From the NCBI RefSeq assembly GCF_001677475.2, contig NZ_CP015229.1: 64,000 nt of DNA; one strand, given 5' to 3'. Made by a program: the position numbers. Positions 58,757 through 64,000 of this stretch are shown one piece after another. The first letter of the stretch is position 1. Each line of letters starts with the position of its first letter. Origin of the DNA: Escherichia coli (GTDB lineage: Bacteria > Pseudomonadota > Gammaproteobacteria > Enterobacterales > Enterobacteriaceae).

Positions 58757-61700
58757 TAACAAAAGCAATTTTTCCGGCTATCTGTATACAAAAACGCCGC
58801 AAAGTTTGAGCGAAGTCAATAAACTCTCTACCCATTCAGGGCAATATCTCTCTTGCAGGTGAATGCAACGTCAAGCGATGGGCGTTGCGCTCCATATTGT
58901 CTTACTTCCTTTTTTGAATTACTGCATAGCACAATTGATTCGTACGACGCCGACTTTGATGAGTCGGCTTTTTTTTGCCTGTTATTTATCAGCGTCTACC
59001 CTTTAAGAGTCCACCCAATGACCGGAGGGAAATATGACGACACTTATTTATTTGCAAATTCCTGTCCCTGAACCGATTCCTGGCGATCCTGTTCCAGTGC
59101 CCGATCCGATCCCTCGCCCGCAACCCATGCCTGACCCACCACCCGACGAAGAACCGATTAAATTGTCGCATCGTGAGCGTAGATCTGCGAGGATACGCGC
59201 CTTCTAACTTTGCGTCGATGACCACGAGAATAGATTGTGACCGCTTTTTCTACCCTGAATGTTTTGCCTCCCGCCCAACTCACGAACCTTGATGAGTTGG
59301 GTTATTTAACCATGACGCCGGTGCAGGCCGCCGCGCTTCCGGCGATCCTTGCCGGAAAAGATGTTCGCGTGCAGGCGAAAACCGGCAGCGGCAAAACGGC
59401 GGCTTTTGGCCTCGGCTTGTTACAGCAAATTGATGCGTCGCTATTTCAAACCCAGGCTTTAGTGCTGTGTCCTACGCGTGAACTGGCGGATCAGGTAGCA
59501 GGCGAATTGCGTCGGCTGGCGCGTTTTTTGCCAAATACCAAAATTTTGACGTTGTGCGGTGGTCAACCGTTCGGTATGCAGCGTGATTCGTTGCAACATG
59601 CGCCGCATATTATCGTGGCAACGCCGGGTCGTTTGCTGGATCACTTGCAAAAAGGCACGGTATCACTGGATGCGTTGAATACGCTGGTGATGGATGAGGC
59701 AGACCGCATGCTGGATATGGGATTTAGCGACGCCATTGATGATGTCATCCGTTTTGCGCCAGCATCTCGACAGACGCTTCTGTTTTCGGCAACCTGGCCG
59801 GAAGCCATCGCCGCAATCAGCGGACGAGTGCAACGCGATCCTTTAGCGATTGAAATTGACTCAACAGATGCTCTGCCACCTATTGAACAACAATTTTATG
59901 AGACATCCAGCAAAGGCAAAATTCCGTTGTTGCAACGGTTATTAAGTTTGCATCAGCCATCCTCTTGCGTGGTGTTTTGCAATACCAAAAAAGATTGCCA
60001 GGCTGTCTGCGACGCGCTGAATGAAGTAAGGCAAAGTGCATTGTCGTTACACGGCGATCTGGAGCAACGTGATCGCGATCAGACACTGGTACGTTTTGCT
60101 AACGGTAGCGCCCGTGTACTGGTTGCGACTGATGTTGCTGCGCGAGGTCTGGATATTAAATCGCTTGAGCTGGTGGTGAACTTTGAGCTGGCGTGGGATC
60201 CTGAAGTTCATGTACATCGCATCGGTCGCACAGCGCGTGCAGGAAATAGCGGTCTGGCGATCAGTTTCTGTGCTCCGGAAGAAGCACAGCGGGCCAATAT
60301 CATTTCTGACATGTTGCAGATAAAACTTAACTGGCAAACGCCGCCAGTTAATAGTTCCATTGTGCCGCTGGAAGCCGAAATGGCAACGTTATGTATCGAT
60401 GGCGGGAAAAAAGCCAAAATGCGCCCGGGTGATGTATTAGGTGCGCTGACAGGAGATATCGGGCTTGATGGCGCAGATATTGGCAAAATCGCCGTGCATC
60501 CGGCGCATGTCTATGTCGCGGTGCGTCAGGCTGTTGCTCATAAAGCATGGAAACAGTTACAGGGCGGGAAGATTAAAGGAAAAACGTGCCGGGTGCGGTT
60601 ATTAAAATAATGAAATGTTGAATTGCCGGGTGCAAGAGTAAACATCTTCTTCGGCATTGCCGGATGCGACGCTGACCGCGTCTAATCGGGCTACATAAGA
60701 GTAGCCCGATAAGCTTGCGCATCGGGCGCTATCCTGTTATTTCACTTCAACCACATTCAGCCGTAACTCATCCAACTGATTTTCATCTTCTTCAGGCTGC
60801 CAGCCCGCCGGTTGTAGTGGGATCTCTTCGCGATCAAACGCCAGATCACCCCCGTTAACCACTTCAGAACCGTGGGTAATGCCTTTGAAATCGAACAGGT
60901 TGGTATCGCACAGATGCGACGGCACCACATTCTGCATCGCGCTGAACATCGTCTCGATACGCCCCGGATAACGTTTATCCCAGTCACGCAACATGTCAGC
61001 AATCACCTGACGTTGCAGGTTAGGCTGTGAACCGCACAGGTTGCACGGAATAATCGGGAACGCTTTTGCATCGGCAAACCGCTGAATATCTTTCTCGCGG
61101 CAGTAGGCCAGCGGACGAATAACGATATGTTTGCCATCATCGCTCATCAGTTTCGGAGGCATACCTTTCATCTTGCCGCCGTAGAACATATTTAAGAACA
61201 GCGTCTGCAGGATATCGTCACGATGGTGACCCAGCGCGATCTTCGTCGCCCCCAGTTCCGTTGCGGTACGATAAAGGATACCGCGACGAAGGCGAGAACA
61301 CAGTGAGCAAGTGGTTTTGCCCTCTGGAATCTTCTCTTTCACGATACCGTAAGTGTTCTCTTCAACAATCTTGTACTCAACGCCCAGCTTTTCAAGATAC
61401 TCGGGCAGAACGTGTTCCGGGAAACCCGGTTGCTTTTGATCGAGGTTAACAGCCACCAGCGAAAAATTGATTGGCGCGCTTTGCTGCAAATTGCGCAGAA
61501 TCTCCAGCATGGTATAGCTGTCTTTACCCCCTGAGAGGCAAACCATGATGCGATCGCCTTCTTCAATCATATTGAAGTCAGCAATGGCTTCGCCCACGTT
61601 ACGACGCAGACGTTTTTGTAATTTGTTCAGGTTGTATTGTTCTTTCTTTGTAATTTGTTGATTTTCTTGCATTATTTCAGTTCTCTGGTACTAAATGGGG

Positions 61701-64000
61701 CAAATTGGGGGCAAACTTTGCAACTACGATAACCGCGCATTCAACATGGCTATCTGTTCGTCGTTCATGTCATCAATCCACATACCGTAAATTTCATACA
61801 CCATCTGCGCAGTTTCATGCCCCATTTGGCTGGCTATAAATGCCGGGTTCGCTCCTGCCGTCAACAGCCAGCAGGCAAAAGTATGCCGCGTATGGTACGG
61901 ATTACGGCGGCGAATACCAGCACGTTTTACTGCTGCATTCCACCTTGCCCCCAAACTGCTTACCGAGTAATAAGGTTTCTGTTTTCCGTTACACACCCTT
62001 GGCATGAAAACAAAATGCAGTTTTTGCTTTTCGGTTCTGCCGTACTCCCGATGATAAAAGGTGATTTCGCTTTTGCGATGATGCCCGGTCAGTTTGTATT
62101 GCTCCTTCAGTGCTTCAAGAGCAGGCTGCAGTAGTGTTACTGTCCGGATCCCGGCATTTGTTTTTGGGGGACCGAACATATCAAGTATCGTCAGGTTTCT
62201 TCTGACATTCACTATTCCCTTTTCGAGATCCACATCCTCCCACGCCAGAGCTGCCAGTTCCCCGTGACGAAGTCCTGAGTAAACGGCAAATTTCCACAAG
62301 TTCTGGCTCTGTCCTTTTTCACTTTCCATTAATGCATTGAATTCTGTTTTAGATAACGGATCAGGCTTTATTCTGTTTCGCTGTAATTTTTTTACTCCTT
62401 CAAATGGTTTGGTTGATATAAATCCCGACTGATACGCAAAACGTAACAGCGAACAGAGCAGGGCGATATAGTTATCAACTGTGCGCACGGTTCTTCCTTT
62501 TTTGTTGGATCTTGGATTATCCAGGTAAAGCGTTTCTCCATGCAGCAGTTCATTCCGGTAGTTTAAGATATCGCTATAACGAATATGTGATATCGGGGTA
62601 CTTTCACAAATTATTATTCTGAGTGTTTTTAATTGTGATTTCGTTTTCTTCATTGTGTTTGTTGTTAACTCTGTCTCTTTAATTTTTGTCCAGATATCAC
62701 AAAGCTCCCCGAACGTTTTTATGACTCTCGTTGTCACCATTTTTGCCCCAGTGCTGGACTGGGGAAAACGTCTTAAATACTCAAATTCACCGGAGTTTAT
62801 TTCATGAACTATCAGCGCTCTTAAATTTCCGGCCTTTTTAATATTACTGTTTGTAATCTCCCAGCCTTTTAATGTTTCCCGACATCGTTTTCCTCGAAAC
62901 ATGAACCAGATGCGAATGTATCTACCTCTAATCTCGACACCTGTTGGTAATTTAGACATATCATGAGTCTTTGATAAACTGATTTATCTTTGGATAGTTG
63001 TACCAGATAATCCCTCGTTTGCTGTCTGGCTTACCTAAAGGAGATACTCGCTTGAAGTGGAAGCCCTCCACCCAACAGTTCTGGCGGTATGCTTCAATTT
63101 GTCTGGCCCCCAGACCAGTACGAAGCATCAGACCGTATTCAACCATCCACTCTTCATTAAAAATCACTTGTGCCATCGCATCACCTCTGGCGGGCGACAA
63201 TATTAGACTGAAATTGACGCCCGACGTTGATTATTAATAATCAGCTATGAAGTTTTAATTTGAATACAATGCAACTCACGAGGACAGAAGTTTCTCGCAA
63301 TTAAAATTTATCAGTTTTACTTTCTGCTCTCTGGAAACGCCTGCTTCTTTTTTCCCTGAGAGCATTTTTTCGCATTCTGATTTCGTTAATTTAGATTTTG
63401 AATATCTTATCCAGTTAGTAGGAGTGCCACCTTCTTTTTCAATAGTGGCGGTAATTTTATACATGAACACCTCCATTATTATTTCCAGTGGTTCGTTTAT
63501 TCCATCGTTCGAGTGCTTCTTTTTCACTTCCACCATAGCCGGTTCGGGATTCGCATCCGTTACACTTCGCGCGGTAATATCCTGAAATGGCTTTCACCGT
63601 TACTGATGGACAACCACAAAAAGGGCATGGTTTGACTTTTGTGTATCGCACTGGTTTTTCTCCTGTGAGCTTTGTGGCTGCGCTCATTTCCATTGCTCCC
63701 CAAATACAAAACCAATTTCAGCCAGTGCCTCGTCCATTTTTTCGATGAATTCTGGCACCATCTCGTCAAAACTCGCCATGTATTTTTCATCCCGCTCAAC
63801 CACGACATAATGCAGGCCTTCACGCTTCATACGCGGGTCATAGTTGGCAAAGTACCAGGCATCTTTTTGCGTCACCCACATGCTGTACTGCACCTGGGCC
63901 ATGTAAGCCGACTTTATGGCCCCGAAACCACCGAGCCGGAACTTCATGAAATCCCGGGAGGTAAACGGGCATTTCAGTTCAAGGCCGTTACCGTCGTTGC

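Follow-up and report, generated by a model that had tools for sequence, protein, structure and literature searches.

What lies beside ttcA at the end of this Escherichia coli sequence, and how closely does it correspond to the prophage Rac of strain K-12? We analysed a stretch of 64,000 nucleotides (the window), for which a first-pass annotation had proposed the left arm of a Rac-like prophage at ttcA, including a toxin of the RalR type. Our results bear this out in outline: a Rac-type lambdoid prophage is integrated in the 5' end of E. coli ttcA, and the region is its left (attL) end, a reading to which we assign a probability of roughly 93%. The alignment of positions 60500-63662 with K-12 ttcA and the Rac left arm extends over 3,165 nt at 98.2% nucleotide identity, a match that far exceeds what chance could supply, and RalR matches its equivalog family. 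The tyrosine integrase, excisionase, ydaC-like ORF and zinc-ribbon RalR that had been placed on the minus strand were all recovered as ORFs and by identity to K-12. Beyond the ttcA start codon (61672), the minus-strand genes follow in the order intR, xisR, rcbA-like, ralR and the 3' part of exo:

60737-61672, minus strand: ttcA, tRNA 2-thiocytidine(32) synthetase, an ORF of 311 aa with 310/311 residues identical to K-12 TtcA
61724-62959, minus strand: intR, Rac tyrosine integrase, 411 aa, 411/411 identical to K-12 IntR; PHROG integrase family phrog_1, E = 5.9e-69
62961-63176, minus strand: xisR (ydaQ), Rac excisionase, 71 aa, 71/71 identical to K-12 XisR; PHROG excisionase family phrog_539, E = 1.1e-26
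63276-63464, minus strand: rcbA/ydaC-like ORF (DUF1187), 62 aa, 60/62 identical to K-12 RcbA; NCBIfam NF007283
63457-63651, minus strand: ralR (lar), zinc-ribbon endodeoxyribonuclease toxin, 64 aa, 61/64 identical to K-12 RalR; NCBIfam NF007260 and TIGR03655
63684-64000, minus strand: lambda-type exo (Red-alpha), 3' part, the window ending within the gene; last 104 aa, 97/104 identical to lambda Exo residues 123-226

The closest known counterpart is the cryptic prophage Rac of K-12 MG1655 (NC_000913 1411899-1434958), which occupies the same integration site with an identical 26-bp core inside ttcA, shares the order ttcA-intR-xisR-rcbA/ralA-ralR at 98% nucleotide identity and encodes identical IntR and XisR proteins. 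XisR gave no match against NCBIfam, and its assignment uses the identity to K-12 XisR, whose function has been demonstrated by experiment (PMC4632033), together with the PHROG excisionase match. The integrase is annotated as intR in matching RefSeq genomes. RalR scores 157.5 bits against the cut-off of 113 for the equivalog NF007260 and 54.6 against 39.6 for the Lar family TIGR03655, and its translation contains the CPFCGC...CNGC motif and K52. The rcbA-like ORF scores 136 bits against a cut-off of 92; it is seven codons shorter than K-12 RcbA (69 aa) because a TGA stands in place of an AGA codon, and the same 62-aa length of ydaC is found in phage Rac-SA53.

Gene order in the window is collinear with K-12 from sapA onward. 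The ycjM-ycjW cluster and IS5F are absent relative to K-12, an absence that the first-pass annotation had recorded correctly. It had also thought it worth remarking that the prophage is retained despite these missing features; this is unremarkable, since 2,907 of 5,426 complete E. coli genomes have the ttcA-intR junction. Everything at this locus has a RefSeq annotation already, and its significance beyond correct annotation is small: a prophage that inserts into a host gene and brings a substitute 5' end with it is a textbook case characterised in K-12, as is the toxin-antitoxin pair of type I with a DNase toxin. The useful yield is a corrected map: the att core falls within ttcA, RalA is there, and the last ORF is Exo instead of RecT. 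The window also contains a rare lambdoid mosaic that places a lambda Red gene beside ralR.

The first correction concerns the attachment site, which had been expected in the intergenic interval 61673-61723. We find it instead within the coding sequence of ttcA:

61623-61648, no strand assigned: attL core, 26 bp, TTGTTCAGGTTGTATTGTTCTTTCTT, within ttcA codons 9-17, with host DNA to the left and prophage DNA to the right
61649-61723, minus strand: prophage-borne replacement of the ttcA 5' end, comprising codons 1-8 (61649-61672) and the 51-bp ttcA-intR spacer, delimited by comparison of K-12 attL and attR

The 26-bp core is the sole exact repeat of 10 bp or longer that the attL and attR (ttcC) regions of K-12 Rac share; the copy in the window is identical to that repeat and occurs here once. 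Positions 61649-61723 are identical to the K-12 attL context. In the MG1655 record the left end of Rac (1411899-1434958) lies 50 bp inside ttcA, with the ttcC pseudogene at attR, and the attP of phage Rac-SA53 is annotated on the same 26 bp (its positions 722-747), again inside ttcA. At an attR of this element, the copy of the core (TTGTTCAGGTTGTATTGTTCTTTCTT) would be expected to continue into the ttcC remnant (ACTAATTTCTTGATTTTGCGACAT). In genomes that do not carry the prophage, similarity to the window extends only up to 61665. Given this limit and the position of the core, the true prophage boundary is to be placed about 25-50 bp left of the start coordinate first proposed.

Rac is known to supply the first eight codons of ttcA, and a Rac-dependent N-terminal variant of TtcA has been described (PMC4632033). 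The N-terminus encoded here, MQENQQIT, is of this Rac-occupied type, as in K-12 carrying Rac. By analogy with K-12, IntR would have recombined the 26-bp core common to phage and host that today lies at 61623-61648, and the prophage would have substituted codons 1-8 of ttcA together with the upstream sequence. Thus, ttcA is intact and its N-terminus is altered, because the prophage provides the substitute codons; the effect on TtcA is probably that described for K-12. If the published activities of the integrase and excisionase hold for these proteins, excision would proceed through recombination by IntR and XisR between the attL core and a further copy past the window end.

The window covers no more than about 2.4 kb of prophage DNA, and neither attR nor the immunity region or the structural genes, and a truncation would be compatible with this. 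We therefore weighed the reading that the element is a decayed remnant, in which the int-xis-ralR-exo corner alone survives beside ttcA, the rest being deleted, so that no attR exists and excision is impossible. Elements of the Rac type are frequently cryptic and eroded: the 23-kb Rac of K-12 is defective, and the prophage of the closest relative has IS66 and IS3 inserted in it and frameshifts in structural genes. Against this, the five genes visible in the window are all intact, the IntR and XisR proteins match those of the excision-proficient K-12 element (PMC4632033) at 100% identity, and the nearest genome, OkiPb01695 (99.0-99.3% identical), carries a 40-kb element with both att copies, the two cores lying 40.1 kb apart with a lambdoid prophage between them. 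A remnant is thus unlikely, and we favour the left end of a longer Rac-type prophage.

The next question is how ralR is expressed from this element, since its upstream region is new relative to K-12:

63652-63683, no strand assigned: mosaic joint of 32 bp from the ralR start to the exo stop; homology to K-12 extends as far as 63662, and that to lambda sets in at 63684

The start codon of ralR, read from the sequence, is a GTG with AGGAG 8 nt upstream. RalR here has T4 and K5 after this GTG start, compared with D4 and N5 in K-12, and the 5' untranslated region of ralR is replaced by the end of exo. The GTG start and the new upstream region mean that ralR expression may differ from that in K-12. 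Translation from the in-frame ATGs at 63687 or 63693 would yield 76 or 78 aa, which raises the alternative of a 76-aa RalR with an extended N-terminus, coupled in translation to exo through an ATGA overlap (63684-63687) and, unlike in K-12, expressed together with the Red genes. The exo stop codon is indeed overlapped by the in-frame ATG at 63685-63687, which has GGAG 8 nt upstream, the extension is open in five of the five copies compared, which come from two different integration sites, and the recT-ralR spacer of K-12 and Rac-SA53, with its GC-rich inverted repeat (GGCGGTG...CACCGCC), is absent here. However, the GTG homologous to the K-12 start has the better Shine-Dalgarno sequence, RefSeq annotates the 64-aa form, and residues 15-78 of the long ORF correspond to positions 1-64 of the 64-position NCBIfam model. 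At 12-14 codons the extension is short, and the one site that varies in it is non-synonymous, so it gives no evidence of coding constraint. We consider the extended protein quite improbable and keep the 64-aa RalR. The substitutions among the five copies are too few to judge the extension, which is retained as a low-probability rival.

RalR would be held in check by a small RNA. The first-pass annotation had pointed to RalA as something to look for near ralR, and the sRNA is indeed there:

63280-63458, plus strand: ralA, RalR antitoxin sRNA, 179 nt; Rfam RF02694, model positions 1-179 of 179; aligns with K-12 ralA
63342-63357, plus strand: RalA positions 63-78, the 16-nt ralR-pairing stretch TGCTTCTTTTTTCCCT, in which K-12 has A and this allele C at the 13th base
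63514-63529, minus strand: RalA target inside the ralR coding sequence, mRNA AAGUGAAAAAGAAGCA, identical to K-12

The Rfam match reaches 222.2 bits against a gathering score of 170 (E = 3.9e-54). RalA lies antisense to the rcbA-like ORF, from whose opposite strand it would be transcribed, and shares 2 nt with the ralR stop codon. This is the layout of the K-12 RalR/RalA type I toxin-antitoxin system, with RalA antisense to ydaC/rcbA and with toxin and sRNA both above their cut-offs. That RalR is toxic as a DNase, and that RalA neutralises it in a manner dependent on Hfq, is known from experiments with the K-12 alleles only (PMC4041452). Judging from that work, the RalR encoded here would likewise be toxic, and RalA, with Hfq, would block translation of ralR mRNA by pairing with a short stretch inside the coding sequence.

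We placed the pairing repeat 62 nt from the RalA 5' end after PMC4041452. An 11-nt perfect complement, TGCTTCTTTTT, is present in both partners (63342 and 63514). Compared with the published 16-nt interaction, this complement and a G-U pair are retained here and one further pair is lost. The predicted 16-nt seed duplex has 12 pairs and -13.3 kcal/mol, against 14 pairs and -17.5 in K-12. These values refer to the 16-nt seed only; predictions for the whole RalA-ralR mRNA duplex were discarded, as they ignore intramolecular structure and returned long artefactual duplexes. Because one base of the stretch differs and the predicted seed falls from 14 to 12 pairs, the antitoxin efficiency of this allele is an assumption. 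The C variant of the pairing stretch is shared by Rac-SA53. A scan of 61400-64000 returned seven promoter-like sites (4.4 +/- 2.2 expected) and one terminator-like site (2.5 expected), nothing that stood out from the expectation for shuffled sequence and none of the sites assignable to ralA, ralR or ttcA. A TACAAT lies at 63265-63270, 9 nt upstream of the RalA 5' end, with no convincing -35 element.

At the far side of ralR the element departs from K-12. A lambda Red-alpha-type exo is next after ralR here, where K-12 has recT. At the protein level the exo fragment shows 93% identity with lambda Exo; in nucleotides it is 95.7% identical to exo genes of lambda-like phages, and it matches the PHROG exonuclease family phrog_149 (E = 1.5e-26) and is annotated as a lambda exonuclease family protein in RefSeq genomes. 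Its NCBIfam domain match falls under the cut-off, the protein being truncated by the window end. Counterparts of lambda Exo E129 and K131 are present in the fragment; D119 and the N-terminal 122 residues fall beyond the window. The last ORF had previously been called RecT-like, with K-12-like Rac and its RecET module behind it, and although recT follows ralR in K-12, in most E. coli genomes and in Rac-SA53, we can practically rule this reading out: the K-12 alignment stops at 63662, the 3' end of K-12 recT does not align with the window, comparisons with NCBIfam, PHROG and K-12 recT gave exonuclease families only and no RecT similarity in the terminal fragment, and the RefSeq genomes with the joint annotate a lambda exonuclease and then bet.

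The lambda Red module would thus sit in place of at least recT, probably through ordinary module exchange among lambdoid phages. Because the module beside ralR is exchangeable among these phages and is represented here by lambda exo, the element is properly called Rac-like and not K-12 Rac; the RecE/RecT module, historically the hallmark of Rac, is missing next to ralR. Among 5,426 complete E. coli genomes, 15 have the ralR-exo junction. In the relatives that share it, bet and gam come after exo, and gam directly adjoins a RecE gene reduced to the part aligned to K-12 residues 1-587; the recE of OkiPb01695 thereby lacks its nuclease domain. A very doubtful extension of these observations is that the rare joint forms a new expression unit, in which RalR, possibly of 76 aa, is coupled in translation to the Red exonuclease and held less tightly by a RalA allele one seed pair short, tying a DNase toxin to the induction of recombination genes; in the full element, lambda Red would also work beside a RecE with the N-terminal, non-nuclease part only.

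The Rac-like arm itself is shared with inducible phages. Rac-SA53 (KU052037) and vB_EcoS-683R6 (ON470595) and its relatives are 96-97.5% identical in nucleotides over 61673-63662, and they have the same 62-aa ydaC variant (69 aa in K-12), the same RalA C75 variant (A in K-12) and an attP on the same 26 bp in ttcA. In all five inducible Rac-like phages the similarity to the window ends at 63662; Rac-SA53 continues after ralR with recT and recE, unlike the exo found here. On the other side of the joint, the lambda Red module (exo-bet-gam, NC_001416 31348-33232) offers the comparison: relatives with the joint carry bet and gam in lambda order, both outside the window, and downstream of exo lies ralR here, compared with orf60a/orf63/orf61 in lambda.

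The results show that window positions 60500-63662 align with the ttcA-to-ralR region of E. coli K-12 MG1655 at 98.2% identity over 3,165 nt (blastn), within a longer collinearity between the entire window from 16904 on and K-12 1356004-1413937. The DNA therefore derives from an E. coli chromosome, and the region is the left end of a Rac-type prophage, as the first-pass annotation had proposed, and the encoded proteins match accordingly. The identity and order of its genes, taken from the ORF list and the raw sequence, are established as follows.

60737-61672, minus strand: ttcA; TtcA 310/311 identical to K-12
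61724-62959, minus strand: intR, 411-aa ORF; IntR 411/411 identical to K-12
62961-63176, minus strand: xisR, 71-aa ORF; XisR 71/71 identical to K-12
63276-63464, minus strand: rcbA/ydaC-like, 62-aa ORF; RcbA (YdaC) 60/62 identical to K-12
terminating at 63457, minus strand: ralR, zinc-ribbon ORF; RalR 61/64 identical to K-12
stop codon at 63684, open to the window end, minus strand: last ORF

RcbA has 62 aa as opposed to 69 aa in K-12, its stop falling 7 codons sooner. RalR scores above the cut-off for the NCBIfam equivalog NF007260 (157.5 bits against 113) and also for the Lar family, the ydaC-like ORF does so for NF007283 (NCBIfam), and PHROGs assign integrase, excisionase, Lar-like protein and exonuclease to the respective ORFs. 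The locus was rightly recognised, yet it is an ordinary one and already known, near-identical sequence carrying RefSeq annotation.

Homology to K-12 stops at 63662. From the stop codon at 63684 to the window end the homology is to phage lambda, with about 96% nucleotide identity, and 97/104 encoded residues are identical to lambda Exo 123-226, E129 and K131 included. Nothing in the window aligns with K-12 recT. The last ORF, previously taken for a RecT-like fragment, is therefore a fragment of the Red-alpha exonuclease gene exo, and the RecT identity is rejected.

The mosaic joint between ralR and exo is established in the window, and a 251-bp probe for it was covered in only 15 of the 5,426 complete genomes. 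We inspected its context in four genomes: OkiPb01695, which is the closest (99.0-99.3% identical to the region), PapRG-04-4, M8 and OkiPb01676. OkiPb01695 and PapRG-04-4 have the joint at ttcA, behind intR. In M8 (L008) and OkiPb01676 (L009) the same ydaC/ralA-ralR-exo-bet-gam block lies next to yebY, in the yebY-copD locus, preceded by an unrelated 358-aa integrase and a 93-aa excisionase. This second chromosomal site with another integrase indicates that the RalR/RalA pair moves between lambdoid prophages as a cassette; the joint is ordinary lambdoid module shuffling.

After exo, OkiPb01695 has bet, gam and a gene for a RecE of 677 aa; this RecE aligns solely with K-12 RecE residues 1-587, so that the counterpart of residues 588-866 is missing. 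In the relatives sharing the joint (OkiPb01695, L001 24448-26755; L007-L009), lambda gam-bet-exo replaces recT and the part of recE encoding K-12 588-866; the truncated RecE is the 677-aa N-terminal protein, and recE shares 23 nt at its 3' end with gam. The OkiPb01695 prophage, for that genome only, spans 40.1 kb between two core copies and bears IS insertions and frameshifted structural genes.

The attachment core lies within the ttcA coding sequence, rather than in the 51-bp spacer 61673-61723 where it had been placed. The 26-bp TTGTTCAGGTTGTATTGTTCTTTCTT is the sole exact repeat of at least 10 bp common to the K-12 attL and attR regions; it occurs once in the window, at 61623-61648, inside ttcA codons 9-17. 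The MG1655 record begins Rac 50 bp within ttcA and lists the native ttcA 5' end, displaced to attR, as pseudogene ttcC, and the attP annotation of the inducible Rac-like phage Rac-SA53 falls on the same 26 bp. A junction-spanning probe matched across ttcA-intR in 2,907 of 5,426 complete genomes. In sampled genomes lacking the junction the match mostly ends at 61665 (in a single genome, at 61675), a limit set by the phage-borne 5' end resembling the native one without being identical to it. Taken together, the core position, these annotations and the junction-less genomes indicate that ttcA codons 1-8 and the spacer are prophage DNA, a situation already published for K-12 Rac (PMC4632033). That study reported that four N-terminal TtcA residues are altered by Rac integration and restored on excision; the N-terminus in the window, MQENQQIT, is of the "occupied" type. 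Since more than half of the complete E. coli genomes have intR beside ttcA, the remark that the prophage was "retained" carries no weight.

A GTG at 63649-63651 stands for the K-12 ralR ATG, with AGGAG 8 nt upstream. Two further in-frame ATGs lie upstream, one overlapping the exo stop codon (ATGA), and the N-terminal extension is open in the five copies compared, whose differences are too few for judgement. The 64-aa form matches the NCBIfam model over its whole length and is more likely than the extended one.

The antitoxin sRNA RalA, suggested as a search target near ralR, is present: RF02694 (Rfam) matches 63280-63458 (+) over all 179 model positions (222.2 bits, gathering score 170), antisense to the rcbA-like ORF, the very arrangement seen in K-12. 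According to Guo et al. (PMC4041452), RalA pairs through a 16-nt stretch located 62 nt from its 5' end. The corresponding window positions are 63342-63357, TGCTTCTTTTTTCCCT, with the ralR target at 63514-63529, and the 11-nt perfect complement reported in PMC4041452 is intact, so RalA retains pairing potential toward ralR. At one base of the stretch K-12 has A and the window C; the seed duplex is accordingly predicted to have 12 pairs (-13.3 kcal/mol) here, against 14 pairs (-17.5 kcal/mol) in K-12. Rac-SA53 has the same base as the window, so the variant is a natural one. Judging from experiments in K-12, the core would be the site at which IntR and XisR carry out integration and excision, RalR would act as a non-specific DNase toxin, and RalA would stop RalR translation with the help of Hfq.

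A GC-rich hairpin (GGCGGTG...CACCGCC) lies between recT and ralR in K-12 (L002 7940-7975) and Rac-SA53 (L006, about 2780-2815) and is wholly missing from the window (compared stretch 63652-63683). The 3'-terminal hairpin of RalA has a 3' arm (GUGGCGG) that is complementary to the 3' arm of the recT-ralR hairpin, a match that could be chance.

Elsewhere in the window, the K-12 14-kb ycjM-ycjW/ompG cluster (1370022-1384104) is indeed absent, as first noted, with about 87 bp instead between pspE and ycjX (30788-30875). K-12 IS5F (ynaI-ynaJ) is absent at 43476-43479, where the site is clean. About 660 bp at 37499-38160, in the mpaA/ymjC/ycjY region, have no K-12 counterpart; at the matching spot OkiPb01695 has a second alpha/beta hydrolase annotated, frameshifted. 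A 3.6-kb segment from mcaS/abgR to smrA (52094-55695) is missing from both K-12 and OkiPb01695. Translation, ORF length and order suggest a putative AraC-type regulator (52059-52874, -), a putative membrane-fusion (HlyD/EmrA-like) protein (52968-53999, +) and a putative 504-aa MFS (EmrB-like) transporter (53996-55510, +). The sRNAs FnrS (58855-58972, +; Rfam 134.8 bits) and McaS (51893-51988, -; Rfam 113.5 bits) are in the same places as in K-12.
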